Assembly (NCBI GenBank): GCA_044229475.1
Contig: JBGASW010000007.1
Location: forward strand, 62,054-126,053
Direction of reading: 5' to 3'
DNA: 64,000 nucleotides
Source: Thermoanaerobaculia bacterium
GTDB taxonomy: Bacteria; Acidobacteriota; Thermoanaerobaculia; UBA5066
In this document: positions 36,208 to 50,715 of the stretch, in pieces
Numbering within the stretch: position 1 is the stretch's first letter
Layout of the letters: each line of letters begins with the position of its first letter
Notes under the pieces: generated by a model
What the model saw: the letters and a program-made list of their open reading frames with translations, nothing else
What the model was told of the DNA's origin: nothing
Databases searched by the model: none
Program-made: the position numbers and the translations under genes

Positions 36208-36389
36208 GAGACCTCCTGATGCCGCCGAATGTAAGGCCTGGCGGGCCCGGCGCAAGGCCCGGCCGTGGCTCCCGGACGCCAGAACCGGGTTTCGGGGCGT
36301 CACGGCGCCCCGAAACGGCCCTCCGGCGCGGCCGAATGGTTCAAATGAGGGATGGACGGCCCTCGGCCGCCCCCCGACATTGACCTTGG

Positions 36390-38027: not shown

Positions 38028-38605
38028 GCGAGGTCCTCCTCCTGTGGATCGGAGTTCGGGACCCGGCCGCGGATCTCCTCGAAGGCGTTCGCCGGAGCGT
38101 GGCGCGCGAGTTCGAGATCGACGCCCGCGTGAGCGTCTCGGCCGAGCGCCCCGAGGACGCGTTCGACGCGCGCCGGGGTCAGCACTCGTCCACGCGGATC
38201 CTCGCGTGGCTGCAGGAGCGCCGGGAGGGGGCGCACCGGGTCCTCGGCGTGACGGACGCCGACCTCTTCATCCCGATCCTGACCTTCGTCTTCGGCGAGG
38301 CGCAGCTCGGCGGCCGCGCCGCGGTCGTCTCGACGGCCCGCCTCGGCGACACCCCGCTGATCCCCGGCGAGCCGGCGCGCATCGCCCTGCGCCTCCAGAA
38401 GGAGGCCGTGCACGAGCTCGGGCACACGTTCGGCCTCCTGCACTGCGCCGACGCGCGCTGCGCCATGGCGCGTTCGCCGAGCCTGAGACACGTCGACGAG
38501 AAATCCCCCGTCCTTTGCCGCGCCTGCCGCGCCCGCACCCGCGAACTCTCGGAGAACGGAGACGTCCATGAGCAAGAAGAACACGCGAATCCTGATCGTC
38601 GATGA
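38024..38605 (+). CDS. Archaemetzincin-like zinc metalloprotease (peptidase M54 family)
   Basis: HELGHTFGLLHC zinc motif plus CX4C...CX2C zinc-ribbon; GTG start overlapping HK stop (GTGA); 3' end overlaps RR start by ~38 nt. Confidence 0.65.
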   Translation: MSEVLLLWIGVRDPAADLLEGVRRSVAREFEIDARVSVSAERPEDAFDARRGQHSSTRILAWLQERREGAHRVLGVTDADLFIPILTFVFGEAQLGGRAAVVSTARLGDTPLIPGEPARIALRLQKEAVHELGHTFGLLHCADARCAMARSPSLRHVDEKSPVLCRACRARTRELSENGDVHEQEEHANPDRR

Positions 38606-39959
38606 CGAGGAGATCGTCCGGGAGTCCCTCTCGGGCTGGCTCGGCAAGGACGGCTACACGATCGGGACCGCGCCCGACGGGCTGACGGCCCTGAAGCTCA
38701 TGGAGGAGCACCCGTGGACGATCCTCCTCGTGGATCTCAAGATGCCCGGCATCGACGGGCTCGAGGTCCTGAGGCGCGTCAAGGAGCGCTGGAGCGACAC
38801 GGCCGTCCTCATCATGACGGCCTACGCCACCGTCGACACGGCCGTCAACGCGATGAAGGCCGGCGCGTTCGACTACGTCGTCAAGCCGTTCGACCCCGAG
38901 GAGGTGAGCCTCGTCGTCGAGAAGATCGTCGCGCAGCAGGCGCTCGTGCGCGAGAACGTGATCCTCCGGAAGGCCCTGAAGAAGGAGTACCGGTTCCACG
39001 ACCTCGTCACGAAGAGCCCGGCGCTTCTCGCGACGCTCGAGCTCGCGAAGACGGCCGCGCGCAGCCCGTCCACGGTCCTCGTCCTCGGGGAGAGCGGAAC
39101 CGGCAAGGAGCTCCTCGCCCGCGCGATCCACGCCGAGAGCCCGCGCAGCGGCAAGCCGTTCGTCGCGATGTCCTGCGCGGCCCTGACGGAGACGCTCCTC
39201 GAGTCCGAGCTCTTCGGGTACGAGAAGGGCGCGTTCACGGGCGCGAACGGCCGGCGGGAAGGGAAGTTCGAAGCGGCGAGCGGCGGCACGCTTTTCCTCG
39301 ACGAGATCGGCGACATCAGCCCGAAACTCCAGCTCGACCTCCTGCGCGTCCTCGAGGAGCGCCGGGTCACGCGGGTGGGCGGCACGGATTCGCTGCCCGT
39401 CGACGTCCGGATCATCGCCGCGACGAACCGGGACCTCCGGCGGGCGGTCGAGGAGGGCCGATTCCGGCAGGATCTCTTCTACCGCCTGAACGTCATCACG
39501 ATCACGCTCCTCCCGCTGCGCGAGAGGAAGGAGGACATTCCCCTGCTCGTCGACCGGCTTCTCGAACAGCTCTCGTCGGAGCTCAAGCGCCCCGCGGAGC
39601 GCGTCTCGCCCGAGGCGATGGCGATCCTCCTCGCCCACTCGTGGCCCGGGAACGTCCGCGAGCTGCGCAACGTCCTCGAGCGCGCGATCGTGGTCTCCGA
39701 GGGCCCCGTCCTCGAGGCCCGGCACCTCGGTCTCGTCCTCCAGGACGGCGCCGCGGCGCCCGTTCCCGAGCACCCGGCCTCGCTCGAGGAGATCGAGCGC
39801 CAGTACATCGGAAGCGTCCTCAAGCAGAGCGGCGGCAACGTGACGCAGGCCGCCCGCATCCTCGACATCGACCGCGTGACTCTCTACGCCAAAATTCGGA
39901 AGTACGGGCTGAAACGCGCGGAAGACGGGGAGTTCGAACCCGCAACGCCCGCCCGCTGA
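38568..39959 (+). CDS. Sigma-54-dependent Fis-family response regulator (NtrC-like)
   Basis: REC domain (ILIVDDE ... DLKMPG), AAA+ sigma-54 activator domain (GESGTGKE, GAFTGA, ESELFGYEKGAFTG), C-terminal Fis HTH. Confidence 0.9.
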   Translation: MSKKNTRILIVDDEEIVRESLSGWLGKDGYTIGTAPDGLTALKLMEEHPWTILLVDLKMPGIDGLEVLRRVKERWSDTAVLIMTAYATVDTAVNAMKAGAFDYVVKPFDPEEVSLVVEKIVAQQALVRENVILRKALKKEYRFHDLVTKSPALLATLELAKTAARSPSTVLVLGESGTGKELLARAIHAESPRSGKPFVAMSCAALTETLLESELFGYEKGAFTGANGRREGKFEAASGGTLFLDEIGDISPKLQLDLLRVLEERRVTRVGGTDSLPVDVRIIAATNRDLRRAVEEGRFRQDLFYRLNVITITLLPLRERKEDIPLLVDRLLEQLSSELKRPAERVSPEAMAILLAHSWPGNVRELRNVLERAIVVSEGPVLEARHLGLVLQDGAAAPVPEHPASLEEIERQYIGSVLKQSGGNVTQAARILDIDRVTLYAKIRKYGLKRAEDGEFEPATPAR

Positions 39960-39983
39960 GAATCACAACCCTCCGTTGAGAAA

Positions 39984-40020
39984 ACGAACGCGCGGGCCTC
40001 CCGCGCGTTCTTTCGTTCTT
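39984..40020 (+). terminator. Rho-independent terminator after the sigma-54 regulator gene
   Basis: Perfect hairpin GAACGCGCGGG-CCTC-CCGCGCGTTC followed by TTTCGTTCTT. Confidence 0.6.
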
Positions 40021-40079
40021 CAAGGGCAAGACGCTGCGCCCGTGCGTGTTGCAGGCGCGACGAGCCGCCGCGCGAAGCG

Positions 40080-40095
40080 TGGCCCGGTCCGTGCA
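40080..40095 (+). promoter_or_regulatory. Candidate sigma-54 (-24/-12) promoter TGGCCC-N5-GTGCA
   Basis: GG and GC dinucleotides at correct 12-nt spacing, ~15 nt upstream of first operon ORF; downstream of an NtrC-type activator gene. Confidence 0.35.
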
Positions 40096-40109
40096 ATCCC
40101 TCCGTCGCC

Positions 40110-40361
40110 ATGATGAACGACACCACGACCGCCTGCCCCTGGCTGAAGCAAGTCGTGATGCTCTATTGCGACGCCTGCCCGACGAAAAAGATGGTCCCGC
40201 GCGACCAGCTCGTGTCCATGGGTCCGTGCCTCGCCGGCTCCTTCTCGGAGTGCGCGATGTACCGCGAGATGGTCCAGAGGCTCGAGGCCGGCGCCGCCCG
40301 CAACGACGATGAAACGGAAGCGAGCCTCGCGGCCGCTTCCGGGAGGGAGGTCCCGTCATGA
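40110..40361 (+). CDS. Hypothetical Cys-rich small protein (83 aa)
   Basis: 5 Cys (C-x10-C-x2-C-x16-C-x7-C), coding codon bias, stop overlaps next start (ATGA). Confidence 0.4.
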   Translation: MMNDTTTACPWLKQVVMLYCDACPTKKMVPRDQLVSMGPCLAGSFSECAMYREMVQRLEAGAARNDDETEASLAAASGREVPS

Positions 40362-40441
40362 TCGCCACCGTTCCGCTCGCCGTTCTCGCCCTCCTGACGC
40401 TCCTCGCGATGGCCCGCCAGAGCCGGGTCCACGCCGCGTGA
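40358..40441 (+). CDS. Putative 27-aa hydrophobic membrane peptide (MIATVPLAVLALLTLLAMARQSRVHAA)
   Basis: Strong SD GGGAGGGAGG 7 nt upstream; single TM; followed by SD+start of Fe-S subunit gene. Confidence 0.3.
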   Translation: MIATVPLAVLALLTLLAMARQSRVHAA

Positions 40442-40457
40442 GAAGGAGAAAGACGCG

Positions 40458-41366
40458 ATGAACCTGAACCGCCGCAACCTTCTCAAGATCGCCGGCGCCG
40501 CCGGTGCGGGAGCCGCCCTCACCGGCGGTGCCCTCGCGTCGGCCACGACGCGAGGGGCCGCGAAGGACGCCGTCGGCGTTCTCGTCGACACGACGCGCTG
40601 CGTCGGCTGCCGCGGCTGCGAGGCCGCGTGCTCCGAAGCGAACGCGCTCGCCGCTCCCGACATGCCGGGCGACGACGCCGTGTTCGCCGCGCGCCGCCGG
40701 ACGGGACCCACGAGCTTCACGGTCGTGAACAAGTCGACCGCGAAGAGCCCCGCGGGCGAGGACCGCTACGCGAAGACGCAGTGCATGCACTGCGTGACGC
40801 CCGCCTGCGCGTCGGGCTGCGTCGTGAAGGCGCTCGAGAAGACGGCCTCGGGGCCGGTCGTGTACCACGAGGACCGCTGCCTCGGGTGCCGCTACTGCAT
40901 GATCGCGTGCCCCTTCAGCGTGCCGAAGTACGAGTACACGAAGGCGGCGCCCCTCGTGAAGAAGTGCACGTTCTGCGCGGCGCGCCAGGAGAAGGGCCTT
41001 CCGCCGGCCTGCACGGACGCGTGCCCCTCGGGCGCGCTCACGTTCGGCAAGCGGGCCGACCTCCTCGAAGAGGCCAAGACCCGCATCTACCAGAACCCGA
41101 CGAAGTACGTCCACGAGATCTACGGGGAGGACGAGGCCGGCGGCACGAGCTGGCTCTACATCTCCGACGTCTCCTCGGCGAGCCTCTCGCTCCCGCAGGA
41201 CATCGTGAAGAAGTCCTACCCCGAGATGGCCGACGGCGCGCTCTCGGCCGTCCCGTTCGTCGTGACCCTGTGGCCGCCGCTCCTCATGGGTCTCTACACC
41301 TTCAGCAAGCGGGTGGGCGACGTCGCCGGCCGCGAGAGCGCGCACAAGGGAGACGGCCATGAGTGA
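40458..41366 (+). CDS. Tat-exported 4x[4Fe-4S] ferredoxin-type subunit with C-terminal membrane anchor (HybA/PsrB/NrfC-like)
   Basis: Twin-arginine signal NRRNLLK; four Cys clusters (CVGCRGCEAAC, CMHCVTPACASGC, CLGCRYCMIACP, CTFC...CTDACP); C-terminal TM helix. Confidence 0.85.
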   Translation: MNLNRRNLLKIAGAAGAGAALTGGALASATTRGAAKDAVGVLVDTTRCVGCRGCEAACSEANALAAPDMPGDDAVFAARRRTGPTSFTVVNKSTAKSPAGEDRYAKTQCMHCVTPACASGCVVKALEKTASGPVVYHEDRCLGCRYCMIACPFSVPKYEYTKAAPLVKKCTFCAARQEKGLPPACTDACPSGALTFGKRADLLEEAKTRIYQNPTKYVHEIYGEDEAGGTSWLYISDVSSASLSLPQDIVKKSYPEMADGALSAVPFVVTLWPPLLMGLYTFSKRVGDVAGRESAHKGDGHE

Positions 41367-42582
41367 GACCTTCGACCGTGTGGCGGCTTCGGCCTTCCTC
41401 CGCGAAAAAGTCTTTCTCGGCATGGAGCCGAAGACGTACGCGAAGAGCCTCTTCACGAAGACGAACGCGATCTTCGCGGCGATCCTCGCCGTCGGCCTGC
41501 CCACGATGGCCTACAGGTTCTGGCACGGCATGGGCGCGGTGAGCAACCTCTCGCAGACGAACCCCTGGGGCATCTGGGTGGCGTTCGATATCGTGTGCGG
41601 CGTCGCGCTCGCCGCCGGCGGCTACACCGTGGCCGCGGCGGTCTACCTGTTCGGACAGAAGCAGTTCGCCCCGGTCCTCCGCCCCGCGATCCTCACGGGC
41701 TTCCTCGGCTACGCCTTCGTCCTCGTCGGCCTGCTCGTCGATCTCGGGCAGCCGTGGCGGCTCCCGTACCAGTTCTTCCTCACGCCCGGCACGACCGCCG
41801 TCATGTACGAGGTCGGCTGGTGCGTCTTCCTGTACCTGATGGTCCTCGCGCTCGAGTTCCTTCCGGCGGCGCTCGAGTGGCTCGGGATGACGAAAGTTCG
41901 CCGATTCATGAGCGCGATCTCGATCGGGATCATCGTCCTCGGCGTCACGCTCTCGACGCTCCACCAGTCCTCGCTCGGCGCCTTCTTCCTCATGTCGCCC
42001 GGCAAGCTCCACCCCCTGTGGTACTCGCCGTTCCTCCCGATCTTCTTCTTCGTGTCCTCGATCGCAGCGGGCATCGGGATGGTGATCTTCGAGAGCTCGG
42101 TCTCGCACCGGGCCTTCCAGGACCGGCTCGACCCCGAGGCGCACGTCGACATGGACGCGCTGCAGCTCGGGCTCGCCAAGGGCGGCGCGGTCGTCCTCTT
42201 CGCGTACTTCTTCATCCGCCTGCAGGGCCTCGTCGCGTCCGGCCGGTTCGACCTCCTCCTGACCGGGTGGGGCGCCTGGTTCGCGCTCGAGATGGTCGGC
42301 TTCGTCCTCCTGCCGTCGCTCCTCTTCGCCTTCGCCGTGAGGACCCAGAATGCGAAGCTCGCGCGCGCCGCCGGCGTCATGACGGTGCTCGGCGTCGTCC
42401 TCAACCGCTTCAACGTGTCTCTGATCGCGTTCAACTGGAACGTGCCGGACCGGTACGTTCCCGCGCTCGGAGAGATCGTCATCTCGATCACGATCGTCAC
42501 GCTCGGCGTCCTCGTGTTCCGCTGGATCGTCAACCGCATGCCCGTGCTCCGCGAGCATCCGGACTGGCGCGGCGCCCACTGA
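41359..42582 (+). CDS. NrfD/PsrC/HybB-family polytopic quinone-interacting membrane subunit
   Basis: 407 aa, ~10 TM helices, NrfD-family pattern; 8-nt overlap with Fe-S subunit gene. Confidence 0.85.
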   Translation: MSETFDRVAASAFLREKVFLGMEPKTYAKSLFTKTNAIFAAILAVGLPTMAYRFWHGMGAVSNLSQTNPWGIWVAFDIVCGVALAAGGYTVAAAVYLFGQKQFAPVLRPAILTGFLGYAFVLVGLLVDLGQPWRLPYQFFLTPGTTAVMYEVGWCVFLYLMVLALEFLPAALEWLGMTKVRRFMSAISIGIIVLGVTLSTLHQSSLGAFFLMSPGKLHPLWYSPFLPIFFFVSSIAAGIGMVIFESSVSHRAFQDRLDPEAHVDMDALQLGLAKGGAVVLFAYFFIRLQGLVASGRFDLLLTGWGAWFALEMVGFVLLPSLLFAFAVRTQNAKLARAAGVMTVLGVVLNRFNVSLIAFNWNVPDRYVPALGEIVISITIVTLGVLVFRWIVNRMPVLREHPDWRGAH

Positions 42583-42599
42583 AAGAGCGGAGAAGAAAC

Positions 42600-43265
42600 A
42601 TGAACGAAAGCAGCCTCCTCAGCCCGCACGCCACGAAGGCCCTCGAGTACCTGCTCGCGGTCTCGTACCTCCTGCTCTTCATCCCCTTCTGGCGCTTCGT
42701 GAACGGCGCGACGATCGCGCAATCCTTCGCGCTCGGATGGTTTCAGGTCCCCGAGAACGTCCACCTGCACCGCGGGCACTCGTGGGCCAAGACGTTCGGC
42801 GGCGCCGTCGCGGTCGGCCTGGACGACTTCGCCCACAAGCTGATCGGCCCGCTGGACGAGGTGCGGTTCCCCGCGGTCGGCACGCCGCTCCGGCAGGGCC
42901 AGAAGGCCTTCACGGTCGTCGCGGACGGCAAGCCCTTCGACGTCGTCTCGCCCGTGGACGGCAACGTCGTCGCGGTCAACGAGGTCGTGCACGCGCACCC
43001 GGCCGACGCCGTCCGCGATCCGTACGGAACGGGCTGGCTCCTGAAGGTCGAGCCGCGCTGGCTGACCGCGAACCTCAAGAACCTCGTCTCCGGCGACTCC
43101 GCCCGCCGCTTCCTGGATGCGGCCGCCCAGGCGCTCTCGGGCCGCATGAGCCCGGAGCTCGGCGTCGTCCTCCAGGACGGCGGCGCCCCGGTCCACGGCA
43201 TCGCCCGCGAAATCGACCCCGAGCACTGGGACGAGGTCGTGCGCCACCACCTGAAGGGCGAGTGA
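42600..43265 (+). CDS. Membrane-anchored glycine-cleavage-H (GcvH)-fold protein, lipoyl-Lys position conserved
   Basis: N-terminal TM helix then region colinear with GcvH (HRGHSWAK ... AVGLDDFAHKLIGPLDEV ... VVADGKPFDVVSPVDGNVVAVNE ... DPYGTGWLLKV). Confidence 0.65.
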   Translation: MNESSLLSPHATKALEYLLAVSYLLLFIPFWRFVNGATIAQSFALGWFQVPENVHLHRGHSWAKTFGGAVAVGLDDFAHKLIGPLDEVRFPAVGTPLRQGQKAFTVVADGKPFDVVSPVDGNVVAVNEVVHAHPADAVRDPYGTGWLLKVEPRWLTANLKNLVSGDSARRFLDAAAQALSGRMSPELGVVLQDGGAPVHGIAREIDPEHWDEVVRHHLKGE

Positions 43266-43275
43266 GGAGGACGCG

Positions 43276-43626
43276 ATGAAAGCCCGCATCCATTTCCTCG
43301 CGGCGACCCTCCTTCTCGCCCTTCTCTCGGCGACCCTCCTCGCGGGCGCGCTGCCGAACCTCCCGAAGGAGAAGGCGCTCCCGCAGGGCGACGGCAGCCC
43401 CGGCGTCGTCACCTTCCGCCACGACTCCCACGTCGACGCCTCGCGCCCCGACTGCACGACGTGTCACCCGACGCTCTTCCCCATCGTCAAACGCACCGCC
43501 TCTTCGGCCGCCCCCGCCGCGATCCGCCACGCCGACATGGAAAAAGGCAAGAGCTGCGGCTCCTGCCACGACGGCAAGAGCGCCCACGGCCTCGACGACT
43601 GCGGGACGTGCCACAAGGCCAAGTGA
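43276..43626 (+). CDS. Triheme c-type cytochrome, cytochrome c7/c3-like
   Basis: Signal peptide; three CxxCH (CTTCH, CGSCH, CGTCH); VTFRHDSH motif as in Geobacter PpcA. Confidence 0.8.
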   Translation: MKARIHFLAATLLLALLSATLLAGALPNLPKEKALPQGDGSPGVVTFRHDSHVDASRPDCTTCHPTLFPIVKRTASSAAPAAIRHADMEKGKSCGSCHDGKSAHGLDDCGTCHKAK

Positions 43627-43634
43627 GGTGACCC

Positions 43635-44333
43635 ATGACGCCTCTTGAGTTCCTCCAGCTCGCCGGCATCTTCCTCGCGGGTCTCGTCGTCCGCGCCCTC
43701 GCCTTCACGCTCGTCCTCGCGGTCTGCGCGCTCCCGATCCTCGCGGCCTGGGCGCTCTGGCGCGCCTGGCAGAAGCTGCGGGACCGCAGCATCGGCCTCG
43801 TGGACGTGGGCGGGCTCGAGCTCGCCGAGGCGCACCACTACGCCCCCGGCCACACGTGGCTCCAGCGGCGGGCGCGCGGCTCGGTCCGCGTCGGGCTCGA
43901 CGAGATCGCGGGCCGGCTCCTGCACGGGCCCACGAGCGTCACGCTCCCGAGGCCGGGCACCGTCCTGGCCGCCGGCCTCCCCGCCGCCACCGTGAGCTGC
44001 CACGGGCGCGCCGCCGCGATTCCGGCGCCCATCTCGGGCACGGTCGTCGCGACCAACCCGGCCGTCGTCCGCGACCCCTCGCTCCTCGAGGAGTCGCGCT
44101 ACCGGGACGGCTGGCTCTTCGCGATGAAGCCCGCGACGGCCGCGTTCCTGACGCTCCCGACCGGCGAGACCGCGCGCTCCTGGTTCAAGGACGAGACGGC
44201 GCGCTTCTCGCGCGCGCTCGAGACCGAGCTCGGCCTCCTCGCCGCGGACGGCGGCGAGCTCGTGGTCGAGGCGCCCGCGCTTCTCTCGGAGGAGAAGTGG
44301 CAGCGCCTCGTCTCGGAGTTCCTGAAGGGCTGA
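43635..44333 (+). CDS. Membrane-anchored GcvH-fold protein lacking the lipoyl lysine (Cys-His at equivalent site)
   Basis: Two N-terminal TM helices then GcvH-like region (YAPGHTWLQ ... VGLDEIAGRLLHGP ... SGTVVATNPAVVRDPSLL ... DGWLFAMKP); K replaced (VSCHGRAA). Confidence 0.6.
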   Translation: MTPLEFLQLAGIFLAGLVVRALAFTLVLAVCALPILAAWALWRAWQKLRDRSIGLVDVGGLELAEAHHYAPGHTWLQRRARGSVRVGLDEIAGRLLHGPTSVTLPRPGTVLAAGLPAATVSCHGRAAAIPAPISGTVVATNPAVVRDPSLLEESRYRDGWLFAMKPATAAFLTLPTGETARSWFKDETARFSRALETELGLLAADGGELVVEAPALLSEEKWQRLVSEFLKG

Positions 44334-44336
44334 CGC

Positions 44337-44792
44337 TCAGCGCTTGCCGAAGAGGCTGTCGAAGGCCGACCGCGCGCCGTCGGGCGTGTCGGCGGCCTTC
44401 GTGCCCGTGAGGTCCATGCTCACGACGGGCGCGTAGAACGTGCAGTCGTTCGCCCGCGACTTCGCCGGGATCGCGACCGGGACCGGCTGGCGGCACTGCG
44501 CGGGAGCTGCCCCGTCGAAGTGGCGGCACTGGCTGCATGCGTGGAGCGCGGCCCCGCACTTCCGGCAGACCGAGGCTTTCGTCACCTCGGCGTCGTTCTT
44601 CTCGCCGCAGGCCTTGCAGCGAAAGACTTCGTCGCGGTGGCGGTCCGCGCCGCGCCCGCGGGGCGCGCCTTCCAGCCGGGCGGGGCGGTCGGAGGAGAAC
44701 CCGCCGCCCCCGCCGGTGCCGCCAGAGCCACCCGTGCGCGCGCCGTCCTGATAGCCCTTCGAGCGGTACTTGCGATCACCCATCCGCATCAT
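44337..44792 (-). CDS. Hypothetical zinc-ribbon protein
   Basis: Gly-rich basic N-terminus, then CKACG...CRKCG...CSQCRHFD Cys pairs. Confidence 0.4.
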   Translation of the reverse strand: MMRMGDRKYRSKGYQDGARTGGSGGTGGGGGFSSDRPARLEGAPRGRGADRHRDEVFRCKACGEKNDAEVTKASVCRKCGAALHACSQCRHFDGAAPAQCRQPVPVAIPAKSRANDCTFYAPVVSMDLTGTKAADTPDGARSAFDSLFGKR

Positions 44793-44839
44793 TCTACGGT
44801 CCGGCGCGCGGGCCGTAGAATCCTCCGCCGAGGGACTCC

Positions 44840-45202
44840 ATGAGACTCCTCCTTCGCATCCTCATCAACGCGGCGGCCCTGTGGGTCGCGGCGTCGGTCG
44901 TGGACGGCATCCACGCCGGCGGGGCGGGCTCCATCCTCGCGGTCGCGGTCGTCTTCGGCGTCGTGAACGCGCTCGTGCGCCCGATCCTCAAGCTCCTGAG
45001 CTGCCCGATCATCTTCCTGACGCTCGGGCTCTTCACCCTCGTCCTCAACGCGCTCATGCTCATGCTCACGGCGTGGGCCTCCAGGCAGCTCGGGATCGAC
45101 TTCACGGTCGCCGGCTTCTGGCCCTCCGCCTTCCTGGGCGCGCTCATCGTCTCCATCGTCTCGACGGTCCTGTCCTGGTTCATCCCGGACAAGGCCGCGT
45201 GA
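44840..45202 (+). CDS. Small 4-TM membrane protein (phage-holin-4/DUF360-like)
   Basis: 120 aa, four TM helices, pattern of the YqgE/holin-IV family. Confidence 0.55.
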   Translation: MRLLLRILINAAALWVAASVVDGIHAGGAGSILAVAVVFGVVNALVRPILKLLSCPIIFLTLGLFTLVLNALMLMLTAWASRQLGIDFTVAGFWPSAFLGALIVSIVSTVLSWFIPDKAA

Positions 45203-45231: not shown

Positions 45232-46083
45232 ATGCGCGTTCCGGTCACCCTGATGGCTCTCGTTCTCCTCGCCGGCTGCGGCAAGCAGCAGCCCGCGCTC
45301 GACGTGAAGACCGCGGCGCCCGCAAAGGCTCCCGCGGCGTCCGCGTCCGCCCCCGCGTCCGGCGTCATGCCCGCCGCGCCCGAAGCGGCGCTCGTCACCG
45401 TCTCCGGCACCGTCCTCGAGACGATGGACGCGGCCGAGTACACCTACATGCGCCTGAAGACCGCGACCGGCGAGACTTGGGCCGCGATCAACAAGACGAA
45501 GGTCGCGAAGGGCGACGCCGTCACGGTCACGAACGCGATGGTCATGGACGGCTTCCAGAGCAAGACGCTCAATCGCACGTTCGACCACATCCTCTTCGGC
45601 GTGCTCGCGACGCCCGGCGCCCCTGCGGCCGCGGCTCCCGCCGCACCCGCCGCGCCGATGGCGTCCGGCCACCAGCCGGCGGTCGCCCCCGCGCCCGCGA
45701 CGCAGGAGCAGATGGCCGCCCAGCACGGGCAGGCCGCGGGCGGCCCCGCGGACGCGCCGGACGTGAAGGTCCCGAAGGCCGAAGGGCAGAACGCGAAGAC
45801 GGTCGCGGAGCTCTGGGCGCAGCGCGCCTCGCTCAAGGGCAAGGAAGTGGCCGTGAAGGCCAAGATCGTGAAGGTCACGAACAGCGTCATGGGGAAGAAC
45901 TGGCTCCACGTGCGCGACGGCTCGGGCTCGAAGGCCGCGAAGGACAACGACCTCACGGTCACGACCGACGTGGTCGCGAAGGTGGGCGACGTCGTGACCG
46001 TGACCGGCACGGTCTCCGTCGACAAGGACTTCGGGGCCGGGTACGCGTACCCCGTCATCATCGAAAACGCGAAGCTGAAGTAG
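45232..46083 (+). CDS. Hypothetical lipoprotein with two tandem beta-domains
   Basis: Signal + lipobox LLAGCG; internal duplication (GDAVTVTNAMV / GDVVTVTGTVSV); SD AAAAGGAG. Confidence 0.5.
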   Translation: MRVPVTLMALVLLAGCGKQQPALDVKTAAPAKAPAASASAPASGVMPAAPEAALVTVSGTVLETMDAAEYTYMRLKTATGETWAAINKTKVAKGDAVTVTNAMVMDGFQSKTLNRTFDHILFGVLATPGAPAAAAPAAPAAPMASGHQPAVAPAPATQEQMAAQHGQAAGGPADAPDVKVPKAEGQNAKTVAELWAQRASLKGKEVAVKAKIVKVTNSVMGKNWLHVRDGSGSKAAKDNDLTVTTDVVAKVGDVVTVTGTVSVDKDFGAGYAYPVIIENAKLK

Positions 46084-46093
46084 TACTCTTCCG

Positions 46094-46183
46094 ATGCCGA
46101 TGCACGCGACCTTCGCCGCCGCCTTCGTCCCCACAGCCGGGTATTTCTATACGCCGGACAGGAGGGGCGCGGCCGACTGAGTC
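46094..46183 (+). CDS. Putative attenuator leader peptide MPMHATFAAAFVPTAGYFYTPDRRGAAD (Phe/Tyr-rich)
   Basis: 29-codon ORF with 3 Phe + 2 Tyr codons (GYFY cluster) immediately upstream of an intrinsic terminator and of an aromatic-amino-acid biosynthesis gene. Confidence 0.4.
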
Positions 46184-46209
46184 GCGTATCGACCCCGGGT
46201 GATTCCCGA

Positions 46210-46250
46210 GGCCCCCCTCCGAAGCGACGGAGGGGGGCCTTTTCATTTTG
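46210..46250 (+). terminator. Intrinsic terminator/attenuator hairpin GGCCCCCCTCCG-AAGCGA-CGGAGGGGGGCC + TTTTCATTTTG
   Basis: 12-bp perfect GC stem with U-tract, 20 nt upstream of the PDT-DAHPS-CM start; alternative pairing of leader segment AGGAGGGGCGCGGCC with left arm possible. Confidence 0.55.
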
Positions 46251-46269
46251 ACTTCGCGAGGAGGCTCCC

Positions 46270-48159
46270 ATGGACGGATCGACCCCCGAAGGCTCCACCC
46301 CAAACGTCCCGACGCCGCGCGCGGGCTACCAGGGCGAGCCCGGCTCGTTCTCGGCGCGCGCGGCCGCGCGCGCAGGCCGGCCCGTCGCGCATGCGACGTT
46401 CGACCGGGTCCTCAAGGCGCTGCTCGGAGGAGAAGTCGACGTCGCCGTGCTCCCCGCGGCCACGCACGGCGCGGGCCCGGTCGTCGAGCCTCTCGAGGCG
46501 CTCGCGCGCGTCCTCGAGGGCGGCGGCGTCGCGCTCGAGGTCCGCGGCGAGATCGCGATCCCGGTCCGCCTCGTCCTCGCGGCGCCGCCGGGCGTCGCCG
46601 AGGAGGACGTCCGGGAGATCCACTCCCAGCCGCCCGTCCTCCGGCAGTGCGCGCGCCTCCTCGCGCGGCGCGACGCCGTGCCCGTCGAGACGCACGACAC
46701 GGCGTTCGCGGCCCGGCGCGTCGCCGAGCTCGGCGGGCCGCGCGCGGCCGTGTGCTCGGAGGAGGCCGCGCTCGAAGCGGGCCTCGTGGTCCTCGAAGAG
46801 GACGTGTCGGACATGAAGCCGAACGCGACGCGCTTCTGGACGGTCGCGCTCCGCTCGGAGGCCGAGCCCACGGTGCGCGCGCTCTTCTTCTCCGGCGCGC
46901 GCCTCGCCGCGGCCCTGCACGACTCGGGGGCCGAGATCCTCATGCTCGCGGGCCGGCCCGGCGCGGCCGTGGGCGGCTTCGCGACCGTCCCGGCTTCCGC
47001 GCTCGCGAAGGCGGCGGGCCTCGCGCCGAAGGCGGGCGAGACGCTCGTGTGGCTCGGGCCCGCGCCCGATCACGTCCCGCCGCCGCGCCTCCGGGAAGCG
47101 CCGCGCGCGACCGAGGTGAAAGGGCCGACCGTCGTCGCGGCCGGCGTCTTCGCCGTCGGCGGCGGGCTCCGCGCAGTGATCGCGGGCCCGTGCGCCGTCG
47201 AGTCGCCCGAGCAGGTGATGCGCCTCGCCCGGGCGGTCGCGCGCGCCGGGGCGACGGCGCTCCGGGGCGGCGTCTTCAAGCCACGCACGTCTCCGGCCGC
47301 GTTCCAGGGACACGGCCTCGAGGCGCTGCGCTGGCTGCGCGACGCGGGCGACGCCGTCGACCTGCCGATCGTCACGGAAGTCATGGCGCCGGCGCAGGTC
47401 GAACCCGTCGCCCGGCTCGCGGACGTCCTCCAGATCGGTGCGCGCAACTGCCAGAACTACGACCTCCTGAAGGAAGCCGGCGCCGCGGGGCGGCCCGTGA
47501 TGCTCAAGCGCGGCTTCGGGACGACGGTGGAGGAGTGGCTCTCGGCGGCCGAGTACATCCTCGCGGCGGGGTGCAGGGACGTCCTCCTCTGCGAGCGCGG
47601 GATCCGGACGTTCGAGCGCGCGACGCGCGGCACGCTGGACCTCGGGGGCCTCCTCGCGGCGCGTTCGCTCACGCACCTGCCGCTCCTCGCGGACCCGTCG
47701 CATGCGGCGGGGAGGAAGGAGCTCGTGCCGGGCCTCGCGCGCGCGGCGTGGGGCGCGGGTGTGGACGGCCTCATGATCGAGGTCCACGACGCGCCCGAGT
47801 CGGCTCTCTGCGACGGGCCGCAGGCGCTCCTGCCCGACGACCTCGAGATGCTCCTCGACGAGTTCGGCCTCCTTCCAGGGCGGACGGGCTCGGTCGAGCG
47901 CGTGAGGCGCGCCATCGACTCCGTGGACGCCTCGATCGCCGCGCTCGCGGCGCGCCGCCTCGAGCTCTGCCGCCGCGTCGCGGAGGTGAAGAAGGCGACC
48001 GGGCGGCCGATCCGCGACGAGGCGCGCGAGGCCACCGTGCGCGCGCGCTTCGCGGAGAGCCTCGGAAAGGACGCGACGAAGGCGGCGGGCCTCGCGGACG
48101 CGCTCATCGCGCTCGGCCTCGAGGCCGAGGGCTGGGAGGGCGACGCTACTCGCCGATGA
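46270..48159 (+). CDS. Tri-domain fusion: prephenate dehydratase (catalytic domain) - DAHP synthase (type I-beta) - chorismate mutase (AroQ)
   Basis: N-term colinear with PheA PDT domain ([11 protein letters not shown] ... TRFWTV); middle colinear with Thermotoga-type DAHPS ([11 protein letters not shown] ... KPRTSP ... QIGARNCQN ... LKRGF ... [10 protein letters not shown] ... DPSH); C-term AroQ CM helix ([26 protein letters not shown]). Confidence 0.75.
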
Positions 48160-48565
48160 TCTTGATCAGGACGCGCTTCGGGCGGCAGCCGTCCCACTCG
48201 CCGTAGAAGATCCGCTCCCAGGTGCCGAAGTCGAGGCGGCCGTTCGTGATCGCGACGACCGCCTCACGCCCCATGAGCTGCCGCTTGACGTGCGCGTCCG
48301 CGTTGTCCTCGCCCGTGTCGTTGTGCCGCCATTGCCTCACGGGATCGTGCGGGACGAGCGTCTCGAAGAAGCGCTCGTAGTCCGCGTGCAATCCGCTCTC
48401 GTCGTCGTTCACGAAGACCGACGCCGTGATGTGCATCGGGTTCACGAGGCAGAGTCCCTCCTTCACGCCGCTCTCCTTCACGGCGGCCTCGACCTCGGGC
48501 GTGATGTTCACGAACCCGATCCGGGCCGGGACGTTCAACGTGAGGACCTTGCGATGGGACTTCAC
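48146..48565 (-). CDS. YjbQ/UPF0047-family protein (secondary thiamine-phosphate synthase-like)
   Basis: 139 aa; GTG start; pattern [14 protein letters not shown] ... [10 protein letters not shown]; overlaps kinase gene stop. Confidence 0.7.
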
Positions 48566-50715
48566 GGGCTCTGTTCGCCTCTCTCCGGCGCGGACGCGTC
48601 GAGCTCGCGCAGGGCCGTCTCGGCGTTCCTCGCGGCGTCGCCTCCCGCGGGCGCGAAGCGCAGGATCTCCTCGTAGAGGCGGTGCGCGTCGCGCACGCGG
48701 CCGGAAGCACGGTAGAGCCCCGCGAGGCCCACGCGCGACGGGAGCGCCTCGGCGGAGGCGGGCGCGGAACGGAGGATCTCCTCGTAGAGCGTCTGCGCGC
48801 GGAGCGCATCCTGGCGCCTCTCGGCGGCCTGGGCGAGGCGCAGGGTCGCCGTCCGCGCGGCCTCGGCGTCGGTGCCGGAGCGAGCCTGCTCGTAGGCATG
48901 CAGGGCGTCCTCGTCCCGCCGCACGCTCTCGAGGTACTCGCCGCGCGTCAGGAGCGCCTCTCCCCGCAGGGAGGGAATCGCGGCGAGAAGATCGAGAGCC
49001 TTGAGGACGCGGCCGTCGTCGCCGGCCTTGCGGGCGAGCTCCGTCATCGTCCGGTAGAGCGCGGCGCGCGTCTCGGCGCGCGGGGTTCTCGCCGCGGCCT
49101 CCGCGTAGAGGTCGAAGGCCTTGGCCGGGCCGCTCTCCTTCTCGGCCGCCGAGCCGCGTTCGAGGATTCGCGCGAGCGTCTCGTCCGCGGCGGACGGGAC
49201 GCCCGGGCCGGGCGCGGCTCCGGGAGACGGAGCGGACGCCGGGGCCGCGCCTGCGCCGGGAAGCCGCGGCGCGCGGCGGGCCCACCACGCCCCGAAAAGA
49301 GCGACCGCGAGAGCCGCCGCGGCGAGAAGAGCGGCGGAGGCGCGCGGACCCGTCCGCGCGGGCGGCGCGGCGGGAACCGTGCGCGGGCTGGCGGGAACCG
49401 ACGCCGGCAGCGCTCGCGCGGACCCCGCGTCCGACGAGAGCAGCGAGGCGATCTGCCCCTGCGTGTACGGGTCGGGCGGCGCGAGCGCCTGGAGCTTGCG
49501 GAAGAACCGCATGAGGTTGACGAAGTCGTGCTCGAGGCGGTAGAGCTTCGCGAGCTGCAGAAGGAGCGCGAGATTGTCGGGCTCCTTCTTGAGCGCCTCC
49601 TCGAGGGAGCGGATCTTCGCGTTGTCGAGCGGCTTCTCGCGCTGCCCGGCGCGGATCGCGGCGGTCCGGAAGAGCTCCTGCGCCTTCGGGTCGTGCGGGA
49701 GGCACGCCACCGTTCGGTAGGCGGCCCAGAGGGCCTCCTCGGGCCGCGCCGAGGAATCCTTCAGGAGCGTCTCGGCCGCTGCCGCGGACTCCGCGGCGAG
49801 GCGCCGGTTGCGCGCGGCGACGAAGGCGCCCGGGTCGTCGAGAAAGGAGCGGAAGAGAACGGCGGGGCGCTCGACGTTTTCCTTCTCGAAGACCGCCCGC
49901 AGGGCCCGCGAGGCCGTCGCCGCGTCGGGGAAGCGGGCCGAGCGGTCCTTGGCGTGGAGCTTCCGGAGGAACGTGTCGACGCCGGGCGGGATCGTCGGGT
50001 CGAGCAGCGAGGGAAGCTCGGGCTCGGTCTCCGCGACGCGGCGGAGCGTCACGGCGATCGAATCGGCCGTGAACGGGTTGAACCCGCAGAGGAGCTCGTA
50101 GAGCACGGTGCCCATCGAAAAGAGGTCGGTGCGTGCGTCCAGCTCGTCGCCGCGCGCCTGCTCGGGCGACATGTGCGCCGGCGTCCCGACGACGGTCCCG
50201 GTCATCGTGAGGCGCGTGAGGTGTTCGGCGTGGCTGATGCCGAAATCGCCGATCTTCACGGAGCCGTCTTTCGTCCACATGATGTTCTGCGGCTTGATGT
50301 CGCGGTGGACGACGCCCTTCGCGTGCGCGGCCGCGAGGCCGTTCAGGGCCTCGTCGACGGCGTAGAGCGCGACCTCCCACGGGAAGCGCCCCGACTCCTG
50401 GCGCAGGGCGTAGAGCTCGCCTCCGTCGACGTACTCCATGACGATGTACGCGTTCGACGGCGTCGGGCTGCAGTCGACGAGCTCGACGATGTTCGGGTGC
50501 TTGAGCCCGATCTGGATCCGGATCTCGTGGAAGAAACGGTCGAGGAAGTCGGGGTCCGTGAGCAGGTGCGGGAGGATCTTCTTGATCGCGACCTTGCGGC
50601 CGGTCTTCGCGTCGACGGCGAGGAAGATCTCCGCCATCCCGCCGAGTGCGAGCCGGCGGACGATCGTGTAGTGGTCGATCCTCTCCGGAACCGGAGGGCC
50701 GCCGCCGTCGGGCAT
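48562..50715 (-). CDS. Serine/threonine protein kinase with TM segment and C-terminal TPR repeats
   Basis: Hanks kinase motifs ([25 protein letters not shown]), central TM helix, TPR-like C-terminus. Confidence 0.85.

Follow-up and report, generated by a model that had tools for sequence, protein, structure and literature searches.

A conserved acidobacterial fusion of prephenate dehydratase, ACT-like, type Iβ DAHP synthase and chorismate mutase domains behind a candidate Phe/Tyr attenuator

DAHP synthase (DAHPS) is a textbook case of allostery by recruited modules, which can be an ACT domain, an N-terminal chorismate mutase (CM) or a C-terminal CM, and to our knowledge each of the known examples bears one such module. 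In a stretch of 64,000 nucleotides from a Thermoanaerobaculia bacterium (contig JBGASW010000007.1, positions 62,054 to 126,053), here called the window, an ORF of 629 codons running from ATG to TGA on the forward strand had been read in a preliminary description as a fusion of prephenate dehydratase (PDT), DAHPS and CM behind an attenuator. The locus raises the question of what a single polypeptide with these parts does, and to which signals the protein and its gene answer. We find that the layout is PDT, ACT-like module, linker, type Iβ DAHPS and AroQ CM in one polypeptide (Table 1). In this acidobacterial lineage one DAHPS bears both an ACT-like module and a C-terminal CM, plus a whole dehydratase; entry into the shikimate pathway, its first committed step, is therefore covalently tied to the branch-point step and to the one that commits prephenate to Phe. 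On the evidence below, we consider it somewhat probable that the protein is a multifunctional shikimate-pathway enzyme expressed from behind a Phe/Tyr attenuator.

Table 1. Features of the fusion gene and its leader in the window, and other permutations of the same domains
Feature	Position	Strand	Evidence or remark
Leader mini-ORF MPMHATFAAAFVPTAGYFYTPDRRGAAD	46094..46180	+	stop TGA 46178-46180
Region 1, Phe-codon stretch	46109..46134	+	MFE: pairs with region 2 in free RNA (anti-antiterminator)
Hairpin P1 (CCGGGUAU-UUCU-AUACgCCGG) around Tyr-Phe-Tyr codons	46137..46157	+	candidate pause hairpin
Region 2 (GACAGGAGGGGCGCGGCCGAC), antiterminator 5' strand	46157..46177	+	complementary to terminator 5' arm; overlaps last seven leader codons, ends before stop
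Intrinsic terminator: 14-bp GC-rich stem GAGGCCCCCCTCCG / CGGAGGGGGGCCTT, 6-nt loop, tail TTCATTTTGA	46208..46251	+	
Shine-Dalgarno GAGGAGG	46258..46264	+	5 nt before ATG; AAGGAGG/GAGGAGG-type purine tract at equivalent site in nearly all relatives
Coding sequence of PDT-ACT-DAHPS-CM protein, 629 aa	46270..48159	+	ORF, profiles, homologs, GC3
PDT domain (residues 17-197)	46318..46860	+	PF00800; TRF at 187-189; P-I-E-N replaced by P62-A-A-T65
Compact ACT-like module (residues about 200-265)	46867..47064	+	AF2 model; Foldseek; dN/dS 0.07-0.21
Pro-rich linker (residues 266-285)	47065..47124	+	P266, P272, R273, P278, T281 invariant; pLDDT low at 268-275
Type Iβ DAHPS barrel (residues 286-535)	47125..47874	+	TIGR01361; C308, H478, E504, D515; KPRTS 337-341; GARN 390-393
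AroQ CM domain (residues 540-622)	47887..48135	+	PF01817; three modelled helices 542-577, 584-598, 605-619
CM-PDT-DAHPS permutation	MAG proteins P0128/P0130/P0132		PDT and type Iβ DAHPS in one chain
FXD-DAHPS-PDT-ACT permutation	MAG proteins P0135/P0140/P0164		sequence-detectable ACT or FXD domain kept
PDT-ACT-DAHPS permutation	MAG protein P0142		sequence-detectable ACT or FXD domain kept

The middle domain is a type Iβ DAHPS of the Thermotoga kind, as originally proposed. Pfam DAHP_synth_1 matches residues 295-527 (E 3.6e-74, above the gathering score), and the protein scores above the cutoffs of the NCBIfam models TIGR01361 (DAHP_synth_Bsub, type Iβ; 346 bits against 267.75) and PRK08673, as well as that of NF006421 (368.7 bits against 335). 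The barrel is 52-57% identical to the A. pernix and P. furiosus structures at a TMt of 0.9; in Foldseek searches 1vs1 was matched at E 3.7e-31 (TMt 0.90, 57% identity) and KDO8PS at about 1e-18 (28% identity), and the alignment with the ACT-bearing T. maritima DAHPS (1rzm) extends over 346 columns, its regulatory domain included. Residues C308, H478, E504 and D515, which are invariant in 53 homologs, align with C31, H201, E227 and D238 of P. furiosus, which we take to be the metal ligands of the enzyme. The segments K337-P-R-T-S341, in which T340 is nearly invariant, and G390-A-R-N393 are likewise invariant among the homologs, and dN/dS across the barrel is 0.06-0.09. Judged by these residues, the domain almost certainly is an active DAHPS, forming DAHP from PEP and erythrose 4-phosphate.

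The C-terminal domain proved to be the AroQ CM that had been claimed. Pfam PF01817 (CM_2) matches residues 545-598 (E 1.5e-12, 48 bits against a cutoff of 27), covering only positions 1-54 of the 80 in the profile, and the six E. coli active-site residues R11, R28, K39, D48, R51 and E52 align with the invariant residues R546, R563, K574, D583, R586 and E587. The third helix could be aligned by eye only, placing G616 at E. coli S84 and the invariant E620 at Q88, the catalytic glutamine of helix 3, which it appears to replace; a glutamate at the latter position occurs in some active CMs. The dN/dS is 0.03-0.09, and the domain very probably converts chorismate to prephenate.

The domain search bears out the N-terminal PDT with its TRFW signature (residues 187-190): PF00800 matches residues 19-193 of the window protein (E 1.6e-34, 119.7 bits against a cutoff of 25.2) and all 53 homologs, and an hhalign comparison with E. 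coli PheA reaches 97% probability, extending across the PDT as far as β1-α1 of the ACT domain. T187-R188-F189 aligns with the E. coli T278-R-F motif, described as critical to catalysis (PMC13217925), and is found in the homologs as T in 52, R in 48 and F in 53 of the 53. N185, like F189, is invariant, and S119-Q120, Q126 and D143-T144-A145 are invariant or nearly so. The conserved P-(I/V)-E-N-(S/T) motif, which includes E159 and N160 of E. coli, is replaced by P62-A-A-T65. Within the family, V or A stands at the position of E159 and T, N or D at that of N160, such that the glutamate is absent from all 53 homologs and, in the sub-clade of the window protein, the asparagine is gone as well; both are kept in E. 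coli and in most of the other permutations of these domains. Because the Glu-Asn pair has been lost, the predicted dehydratase activity is uncertain and may be weak or absent. Of the earlier statement that the first step and the last two activities of the Phe branch are joined, the part concerning domains in one ORF stands, but catalysis by the PDT is not assured.

The canonical ACT domain had been described as absent or degenerate. The AlphaFold model argues against its absence: residues 204-262 form a compact β-α-β-β-α-β unit (strands 204-208, 222-229, 232-239 and 258-262; helices 210-219 and 242-249) with a pLDDT of about 82-90. This ferredoxin-like ACT fold was reproduced in a model of PDT and ACT only (residues 14-272; pLDDT 90, pTM 0.84), which shows a PBP-like two-subdomain fold followed by the ACT unit. 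In Foldseek searches this model aligns with the PDT-ACT proteins 6vh5, 2qmx and 3mwb over 278-282 columns (TMq 0.68-0.74), placing the ACT-like module within full-length PDT-ACT chains. As modelled, the N-terminal 272 residues are a complete PheA-type PDT-ACT unit that aligns end to end with solved PDT-ACT proteins. The Pfam profiles ACT and DAHP_snth_FXD do not match the window protein at E ≤ 1, the ACT profiles give no meaningful match in any of the 53 homologs (the sole match, to ACT_PSP_2 in one of them, has an E of 0.19), and an ACT HMM built from the family finds no significant match in E. coli PheA; we therefore base the ACT assignment on structure prediction. The ligand motifs of the module are degenerate: the GALV motif aligns with A-R-L-A-A-A-L and the place of ESRP is taken, by eye, by A-G-R-P in the window protein and by L-P-G-x-P in the family consensus, with only the proline conserved. 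Given these motifs and the lack of a profile match, binding of Phe or Tyr by the modelled ACT unit is putative. The AlphaFold model of the full fusion protein has a pTM of 0.55, which we count against a firm inter-domain geometry.

These features of the N-terminal unit are open to a different reading, in which PDT-ACT is a non-catalytic pseudoenzyme that senses prephenate, Phe and/or Tyr and regulates the barrel, leaving a bifunctional DAHPS and CM and a different dehydratase for Phe. The loss of the motif glutamate throughout the family fits such a reading, as do the faster evolution of the PDT and ACT modules (mean pairwise identity among homologs 0.66 and 0.48, against 0.84 for the barrel) and the position of the unit at the N-terminal site of known DAH7PS regulatory domains. 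An enzyme domain that has become mainly a regulatory module is also known, the N-terminal CM of Bacillus/Geobacillus-type DAH7PS (PMC8408635). However, the TRF motif and the other conserved PDT residues listed above are kept beyond any obvious need of ligand binding, the PDT is under strong constraint (dN/dS 0.10-0.15), and P0121, a more remote protein whose domains follow the same order, retains P-I-D-N (its CM, moreover, matches positions 1-79 of the 80 in the CM_2 profile). Nor was a separate pheA seen: family HMMs detect no second copy of PDT, ACT, DAHPS or CM in the window and all fetched flanks, which at ~12-64 kb are a small part of each genome. We regard the pseudoenzyme reading as possible, though on the unlikely side. 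In the multifunctional reading that we prefer, PDT-ACT most likely still turns prephenate into phenylpyruvate, and the ACT module could act as a gate on the dehydratase as well as on the barrel, since it is sited exactly where DAHPS of the Thermotoga type carries its Tyr/Phe-binding regulatory domain.

Comparison with characterized enzymes shows which parts of the architecture are familiar. The window protein has the same three non-DAHPS modules as E. coli PheA (CM-PDT-ACT), that is, an AroQ CM, a PDT with TRF and an ACT, and shares six of its CM active-site residues; in contrast to PheA, however, its CM lies far C-terminal rather than N-terminal, the DAHPS barrel stands between ACT and CM, and the GALV, ESRP and Glu-Asn motifs are degenerate. 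With T. maritima DAH7PS (1rzm, 1vr6) it shares a type Iβ barrel directly preceded by an ACT-like domain, but here that domain is the C-terminal part of a complete PDT-ACT unit, lacks a Pfam DAHP_snth_FXD or ACT match, and a CM follows the barrel. The Bacillus, Geobacillus and Listeria AroA(Q) enzymes (5j6f, 3nvt) also join an AroQ CM covalently to a type Iβ barrel, which is 44-45% identical to that of the window protein, although their CM is N-terminal and PDT is absent. The order of a type Iβ barrel followed by a C-terminal AroQ CM is that of the DAH7PS-CM enzymes of Prevotella nigrescens and Porphyromonas gingivalis, whose two activities are both real, interdependent and inhibited by prephenate (PMC8408635; PMC12202928), the C-terminal CM and the DAH7PS standing in reciprocal allostery (PMC8408635). 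Those enzymes come from Bacteroidota, not Acidobacteriota, and are without an N-terminal PDT-ACT unit; the extended inter-helix loop of their CM (C320-F333) has no obvious counterpart in the window protein, whose modelled loops are about 6 residues long. By analogy with them, the C-terminal CM probably also passes prephenate inhibition to the barrel.

A Phe/Tyr-codon attenuator had been noted upstream of the gene, and the hairpin with its T-run and the mini-ORF are indeed there (Table 1); a leader ORF of 22-28 codons stands at the equivalent place in 29 of 43 loci. The leaders of relatives align with the second ATG of the window leader, at 46100, which gives a peptide of 26 residues. In the window, Phe codons start at 46112, 46124 and 46145 and Tyr codons at 46142 and 46148. 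Over 28 loci, aromatic residues make up 16.2% of the leader peptides and 4.1% of the fusion proteins; F, Y and W codons number 118 in frame and 16 and 59 in the other frames; and all 28 tabulated leaders have, alongside Phe codons, a Tyr codon that precedes the stop by 10-13 codons. The terminator is the only terminator-like site within 45500-48700 and is conserved in 29 loci, with a gap between leader stop and stem of 25-27 nt in most and 25-38 nt overall. Fourteen of the 43 loci are without any attenuator, and the element is therefore dispensable for the gene.

Alternative pairings link the leader to the terminator. The 1:2 duplex has an energy of -23.5 kcal/mol, a pairing that is clear in the window and not universal among relatives, and the 2:3 duplex one of -23.2 kcal/mol; in simulations a ribosome held at F7 or F11 allows the latter to form, whereas one at the stop does not. 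In 26 of 28 loci the antiterminator pairing ranks within the top 0-3% when set against matched control windows from coding sequence. A hairpin at the position of P1 is found in all 28 loci, built from differing sequences, e.g. GGAUGGGU/ACCCGUCC, GCCGAGUA/UAUUCGGC and GGCGGAUA/UAUCCGCC. As this small hairpin shifts register between clades, fixed-column covariation on a MAFFT alignment (A2) was dropped in favour of per-locus folding with controls, in which z-scores are modest (mean -1.6); we therefore grade P1 as likely, not proven. The equilibrium MFE structure of the full leader invariably contains the terminator and has no discriminating power, so truncated transcripts were folded with ribosome masking instead. 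With a ribosome at codons up to the Tyr, the terminator arm then stays sequestered (0.6-0.9 in most loci); in most loci it is released when the ribosome stands within the final ~8 codons or on the stop. Several Holophagales-like loci discriminate poorly, and in many loci the antiterminator forms also without a ribosome. In these stall-folding simulations the element behaves like a classical ribosome-mediated attenuator.

In vivo, attenuation would work as follows. With poorly charged tRNA-Phe or tRNA-Tyr, the ribosome would stall at the Phe/Tyr codons of the 26-28-codon leader, and the GGAGGGG...GGCC tract at the leader 3' end would pair with the C-rich 5' arm of the terminator, allowing RNA polymerase to read through. 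With the leader translated to its stop, the ribosome would cover the tract, the terminator would form, and transcription would end 20-30 nt before the start codon. E. coli pheL has seven Phe in 15, and the three Phe and two Tyr codons among the 26-28 of the window leader are far fewer. In E. coli, a Phe-codon leader peptide (pheL) and a terminator control the expression of pheA (PMC11802643). A closer parallel in gene function is the aroR leader of Corynebacterium glutamicum, with Phe-Tyr-Phe where the window leader has Tyr-Phe-Tyr: according to the passage on this leader in PMC11802643, which cites Neshat et al. 2014, ribosome stalling controls transcription of the DAHPS gene aroF, and in that passage only Phe limitation had an effect. 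The aroR-aroF system belongs to another phylum, shows no detectable sequence relationship and has another downstream gene architecture. Control of the acidobacterial gene looks to be by Phe and Tyr rather than Phe-specific, and the earlier proposal of Phe-specific control of pathway entry was overstated, given the fixed Tyr codon in every leader examined, the degenerate GALV and ESRP motifs of the ACT module and the lost Glu-Asn of the PDT. If the element operates as modelled, control of a DAHPS gene by leader-peptide attenuation, already described in Corynebacterium, would extend to Acidobacteriota, from which we know of no described attenuator.

Could the hairpin simply be the terminator of the preceding gene, with a fortuitous mini-ORF and no amino-acid-responsive attenuation? 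It lies 125 nt past the stop codon of a gene on the same strand, DNA of 72% GC often runs for ~26 codons without a stop, related loci exist without the element, and a permissive Rfam scan of 45900-46400 returned only chance hairpin matches, with no Phe leader, T-box or riboswitch among them. Yet the element accompanies the fusion gene in L001/L003, where the upstream gene is divergent and the terminator therefore cannot be that gene's. A TTGAC-type motif of its own precedes the element in 25 of 28 loci, the aromatic codons are frame-specific and fourfold enriched, and Tyr position, stop-to-terminator spacing and antiterminator complementarity are all conserved. We consider a plain terminator quite improbable, and retain the attenuator. 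No promoter was detected in a sigma-70 scan; the spacing of the conserved TTGAC...TAnnnT motif is non-canonical.

That the protein is instead a dedicated supplier of a Phe-derived specialised metabolite, outside primary metabolism, is very unlikely. The similarity to the natural-product DAHPS BagF/FevY in NCBIfam (288 bits) lies far under the family cutoff of 700, the gene lies among unrelated genes of housekeeping or redox function, no biosynthetic cluster being present, and it is conserved across a class-level lineage, once per fetched locus; the specialised-metabolite reading was rejected on score and gene context.

How widespread is the fusion? The PF00800-PF00793-PF01817 arrangement is present in the best 114 protein clusters, at 64-100% identity, and all four modules occur in a single ORF in about 44 species-level MAGs (GTDB) from Thermoanaerobaculia, Holophagales and other Acidobacteriota; over the clusters and MAGs that share this ORF, identity to the window protein is 64-96%. 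The architecture, called unusual in the preliminary description, is so against the literature, yet it is not rare in sequence data and characterises a whole acidobacterial lineage. Within the searchable literature open without subscription we found no published description of a PDT-DAHPS fusion, and we regard the fusion as a new variant, made of known parts in a conserved combination. The 629-aa ORF is real. GC3 is 0.946 in the called frame, homologs match this frame only, and dN/dS across the fusion family is about 0.03-0.21 in every module. A 652-aa ORF overlaps the gene in another frame (GC3 0.56, no homologs) in a window of 72% GC, where chance long ORFs arise. An assembly or frameshift artefact joining adjacent pheA-like and aroF-CM genes can be dismissed, for although a few relatives look split (P0117/L068, L044, L046, L064), these are frameshifts in otherwise collinear sequence (the contig naming of L068 suggests long-read assembly), while one uninterrupted ORF recurs in about 40 genomes and in over 110 independent clusters, which stem from many samples and assemblers, and the linker has invariant residues and a dN/dS below 0.4.

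Three further permutations of these domains were found in MAG proteins (Table 1), which, where a taxon label is given, belong to Acidobacteriota, Myxococcota or Deltaproteobacteria; they differ from the window fusion in domain order, most retain a canonical P-x-E-N, and all are uncharacterised. P0117, P0030 and P0115, candidate unfused ancestors as 'DAHPS-CM only' proteins, were rejected: L068 is frameshifted with the PDT-ACT region intact just upstream, and these proteins are therefore uninformative on origin. We tentatively hypothesize that one reduced ACT serves as a shared allosteric switch for PDT and DAHPS, with the CM reporting prephenate, and that the repeated fusion of PDT and DAHPS is selectively favoured. 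Phe or Tyr would bind where two ACT modules meet, and this one event would both shut the PDT cleft and gate the active site of the DAHPS. If so, a single polypeptide integrating two or three signals would control both the Phe/Tyr branch and entry to the pathway, and the PDT-DAHPS fusion, invented repeatedly and independently in four domain orders, would point to a coupling of first and last steps that is favoured, not accidental.

Were all its parts active, the protein would be a natural trifunctional enzyme acting over non-consecutive steps, and therefore well suited to testing whether regulation rather than channelling is the purpose of such fusions. For the engineering of aromatic production, the fusion might also offer a compact part. 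The automatic label '3-deoxy-7-phosphoheptulonate synthase' hides two further predicted activities and would distort metabolic reconstructions of these MAGs.

In the gene at 46270-48159, four familiar modules are joined in a combination that is widely conserved yet previously undescribed, and a probable attenuator of the classical type precedes it. In the ORF listing of the window it is an ATG-started frame of 629 aa that occupies exactly these positions on the forward strand, with a Shine-Dalgarno sequence (GAGGAGG) 5 nt 5' of its start. Pfam recognises prephenate dehydratase (PDT), DAHP synthase (DAHPS) and chorismate mutase (CM) domains in it, and NCBIfam assigns the middle domain to the type Iβ DAHPS equivalog domain TIGR01361 (346 bits versus a cutoff of 268). 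Because the DNA of the window has a GC content of about 72%, long spurious ORFs run across the gene in other frames, and two of them wholly overlap it: 652 aa at 46248-48206 (+) and 514 aa at 46243-47787 (-). The third-position GC content (GC3) is 0.946 in the fusion-gene frame versus 0.56 in the 652-aa frame, whose first-position value (GC1) is 0.93, and homologs are known for the fusion-gene frame only. We reject both overlapping ORFs as genes and regard them as high-GC artefacts. The ORF listing, Pfam, NCBIfam and GC3 thus agree with the preliminary description, which had read PDT, DAHPS and CM in one 629-aa ORF, and its domain anatomy was right.

Features of the fusion gene and its upstream region (nucleotide positions are those of the window; residues are those of the fusion protein)
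Feature	Position	Strand	Remarks
Lipoprotein-like gene	~45260-46083	+	MRVPVTLMALVLLAGC..., ending ...DKDFGAGYAYPVIIENAKLK
Stop codon of preceding gene	46081-46083		leader features lie between it and the fusion-gene start codon
Leader mini-ORF	46094-46180	+	MPMHATFAAAFVPTAGYFYTPDRRGAAD
G-rich tract	3' end of leader mini-ORF	+	
Intrinsic terminator, strong	46208-46251	+	sole terminator-like site in 45500-48700
PDT (Pfam)	residues 19-193		E 1.6e-34, over curated threshold
DAHP_synth_1 (Pfam)	residues 295-527		E 3.6e-74, over curated threshold
CM_2 (Pfam)	residues 545-598		E 1.5e-12, over curated threshold

The fusion is not peculiar to this genome. In a collection of 5.8 billion proteins, all of the best 114 clusters (64-100% identity) contain PF00800, PF00793 and PF01817; they are 609-667 aa long, save two shorter entries, one of them named as partial, and come from Thermoanaerobaculia or Acidobacteriota MAGs in which the source annotation reads only '3-deoxy-7-phosphoheptulonate synthase'. 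Scanning one genome per GTDB species yielded 47 loci, which lie in MAGs of Thermoanaerobaculia, Holophagales and unclassified Acidobacteriota, and domain HMMs built from the family place PDT, ACT, DAHPS and CM within one ORF at all intact loci. Four copies (L044, L046, L064 and L068) are frameshifted and were split by gene callers into 'PDT' and 'DAHPS-CM' pieces, which could pass wrongly for unfused ancestors. An apparent two-domain DAHPS-CM protein, P0117, is one of these frameshifted copies and is rejected as a true two-domain form: tblastn puts residues 15-249 in frame 2, immediately 5' of residues 253-620 in frame 3. When the window is compared with close relatives by the Nei-Gojobori method, dN/dS is 0.10-0.15 for PDT, 0.07-0.21 for the ACT-like segment, 0.12-0.36 for the linker, 0.06-0.09 for DAHPS and 0.03-0.09 for CM. 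Purifying selection acts on every segment of the protein, and the fusion ORF is real and conserved rather than an artefact.

Published work on DAHPS decorations covers ACT at the N-terminus in Thermotoga, CM at the N-terminus in Bacillus, Geobacillus and Listeria, and CM at the C-terminus in Prevotella and Porphyromonas. In the enzymes with a C-terminal CM, each activity depends on the other and DAHPS is inhibited by prephenate (PMC8408635; PMC12202928). Full-text literature searches found no description of a PDT-DAHPS fusion. When 1.84 billion cluster representatives were searched exhaustively with HMMER, the tri-domain family fell into a few 50%-identity clusters (P0113, P0121, P0122 and P0157), of which P0121 contains a protein from a 'Myxococcales' MAG (HXN81877.1). 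The same search recovered other permutations: CM-PDT-DAHPS (P0128, P0130, P0132, P0136 and P0150; MAGs of Acidobacteriota, HUG42782.1, and Myxococcota, MEN0068463.1), FXD-DAHPS-PDT-ACT, where FXD is the ferredoxin-like domain of Pfam DAHP_snth_FXD (P0135, P0140 and P0164), and PDT-ACT-DAHPS (P0142; Deltaproteobacteria MAG RMG93397.1). Since merely about 23 residues separate PDT from the barrel in P0132, this protein seems to be without any ACT. Coupling of PDT to DAHPS appears to have arisen more than once, and all of the permutations are uncharacterised.

Within the DAHPS barrel, which is 52-57% identical to solved archaeal structures, C308, H478, E504 and D515 align with C31, H201, E227 and D238 of the P. 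furiosus enzyme, the metal ligands there, in a numbering that matches the structure chain. These four residues are invariant in the family, as are the KPR-S motif at 337-341 (T340 nearly so) and GARN at 390-393, and the domain is almost certainly an active DAHPS. In the CM domain, R11, R28, K39, D48, R51 and E52 of the E. coli enzyme align with the invariant residues R546, R563, K574, D583, R586 and E587; helix 3 lies outside the HMM alignment, and E. coli Q88 was matched by eye to the invariant E620. CM activity is accordingly likely. The TRF motif of the PDT domain, described as critical for catalysis (PMC13217925), is present as T187-R188-F189, and the threonine occurs in 52 of 53 homologs. 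At the P-I-E-N motif, E. coli E159-N160 align with A64-T65; family-wide the glutamate position is V or A and the asparagine position T (22), N (22) or D (8). A distant member with the identical domain order, P0121, has P-I-D-N, and most of the other PDT-DAHPS permutations keep P-x-E-N. Because TRF is kept while the equivalents of E159-N160 are A64-T65, PDT activity is plausible but uncertain, and we incline only slightly towards it.

Sequence profiles detect no ACT domain in the window protein or in 53 homologs, and the preliminary description had considered the domain absent or degenerate. Absence is not borne out by the AlphaFold2 models, in which the fold is present; degeneracy, at the level of sequence, is. 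In the whole-protein model (mean pLDDT 85.4), a β-α-β-β-α-β unit spans residues 204-262 with pLDDT of about 82-90, and Foldseek aligns this model with T. maritima DAHPS over 346 columns, N-terminal regulatory domain included, and with Brucella PDT with bound Phe over 278 of 280 residues. Residues 14-272 were also modelled on their own (pLDDT 90.2, pTM 0.84); the 13 best PDB matches of this model are full-length PDT-ACT-type chains, and the ten best (among them 6vh5, 7am0, 2qmx and 3mwb) align along their entire length (278-282 columns, TMq 0.67-0.74). An hhalign comparison with E. coli PheA (authentic sequence from NC_000913.3) passes through PDT into β1-α1 of ACT, with GALV opposite A-R-L-A-A-A-L; the β4 segment 'VLGCYP' was matched by eye to 'WLGPAP', in which W261, L262, G263 and P266 vary little or not at all. 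On these models, the N-terminal 270 or so residues are predicted to form a complete PDT-ACT unit of the PheA type, whose ACT is shortened and degenerate in sequence, and the ACT-like module would sit where Thermotoga-type DAHPS has its regulatory domain. Whether the module binds a ligand is, in our judgement, an even bet.

The leader and terminator upstream of the gene have the layout of an attenuator. The hairpin is not the terminator of the upstream gene, a reading that we reject because L001 and L003 (protein 93% identical) keep the leader (MNAPNAFAFFTVAGYFYTPARRGAAA) and terminator although a divergent YfhO gene lies upstream there. Of 43 loci, 29 share this layout, at protein identities as low as 64% and with 25-27 nt from leader stop to terminator in most (25-38 overall); no Rfam family matches the element. 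The leader peptides are 16.2% aromatic (73 F, 43 Y and 2 W of 729 residues) versus 4.1% in the fusion proteins, and F/Y/W codons number 118 in frame versus 16 and 59 in the other frames. A Tyr codon lies 10-13 codons ahead of the stop in 28/28 tabulated leaders, and 27 of them contain Phe codons, mostly 5' of the Tyr codon; L008, judged by eye, agrees. That locus has a full attenuator (~5620-5800; leader MTPRATAVSFTFTPFGGYLYPSWEGEPTG, with F, Y and W codons), and its spacer between terminator and chosen start codon is T-rich and, at about 105 nt, unusually long.

We simulated folding of the nascent transcript, ending at the terminator loop, while masking the 30 nt taken up by a ribosome. When the window RNA carries no ribosome, region 1 (the Phe-codon stretch, 46109-46134) pairs with region 2 (46157-46177) and the terminator arm stays free. 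With the ribosome at F7 or F11, region 2 is released and pairs with the terminator 5' arm; with the ribosome at the stop codon, region 2 is masked and the arm is again free. The duplex energies are -23.5 (1:2, anti-antiterminator), -23.2 (2:3, antiterminator) and -33.9 kcal/mol (3:4, terminator). Across 28 loci, the sequestered fraction of the arm is 0.5-0.9 with a ribosome anywhere up to the conserved Tyr codon (in most loci 0.6-0.9), and in most it falls to 0-0.4 with a ribosome on the final ~8 codons or the stop. Discrimination is poor at five Holophagales-like loci, and many loci form the antiterminator even without any ribosome. The duplex of region 2 with the arm (-21 to -30 kcal/mol) ranks in the top 0-3% of controls, 33-nt windows of the same locus's coding sequence, in 26/28 loci. 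A small hairpin around the Tyr codons, made of differing sequences, is found in 28/28 loci and may be a pause site, a role that we infer. From these observations, we think it probable that the element functions as an attenuator. The Phe/Tyr-codon attenuator proposed earlier is supported. The Phe-specific control suggested with it looks overstated, given the Tyr codon in every tabulated leader; control appears to respond to Tyr as well as Phe. We know of no attenuator described in Acidobacteriota. Leader-peptide attenuation has precedents in E. coli pheL-pheA and in C. glutamicum, where the aroR leader (Phe-Tyr-Phe) attenuates the DAHPS gene aroF (PMC11802643).

Ahead of the leader ORF, CTTGAC(A/G)-N6-7-GG(T/A)TA(C/T/A)yCT is conserved in 25/28 attenuator-bearing loci (range L002-L044). 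The TTGAC-type motif lies ~29-34 nt 5' of each leader start and just ~7 nt from a TAnnnT-like element, which is not sigma-70 spacing; since the leader start codon follows the latter by ~10-15 nt, a very short 5' UTR is implied. The motif is missing from the window, where 46084-46093 is ~23 nt shorter than in L004, so the leader abuts the upstream gene, and it probably depends on read-through from that gene.

The element is absent from 14 loci (L006, L007, L010-L020 and L039), in which the fusion gene starts 14-16 nt after the lipoprotein-like gene or overlaps it (GTGA). This gene, to which the L001 annotation assigns no Pfam family, shows conserved synteny with the fusion gene in the window and L004 as well as in the 14 leaderless loci; in the latter the two are translationally coupled. 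It has no obvious link to aromatic metabolism. The fusion gene and a convergent yjbQ-like gene share 14 nt at their 3' ends (48146-48159), and there is therefore no space for a terminator between them. In L001, yjbQ and the adjoining Ser/Thr kinase gene overlap by 4 nt, and in L068 they are annotated as a single 859-aa kinase-YjbQ product. Further upstream, L001 (1861-6199) carries Fer4_11, NrfD, two GCV_H-like and cytochrome c7 genes together with a Phage_holin_4_2 family protein, corresponding by synteny to ~36000-44800 of the window; matching ORFs are seen in the window at 43635-44333 and 44840-45202. The set may be a membrane redox module and is unrelated to the fusion.
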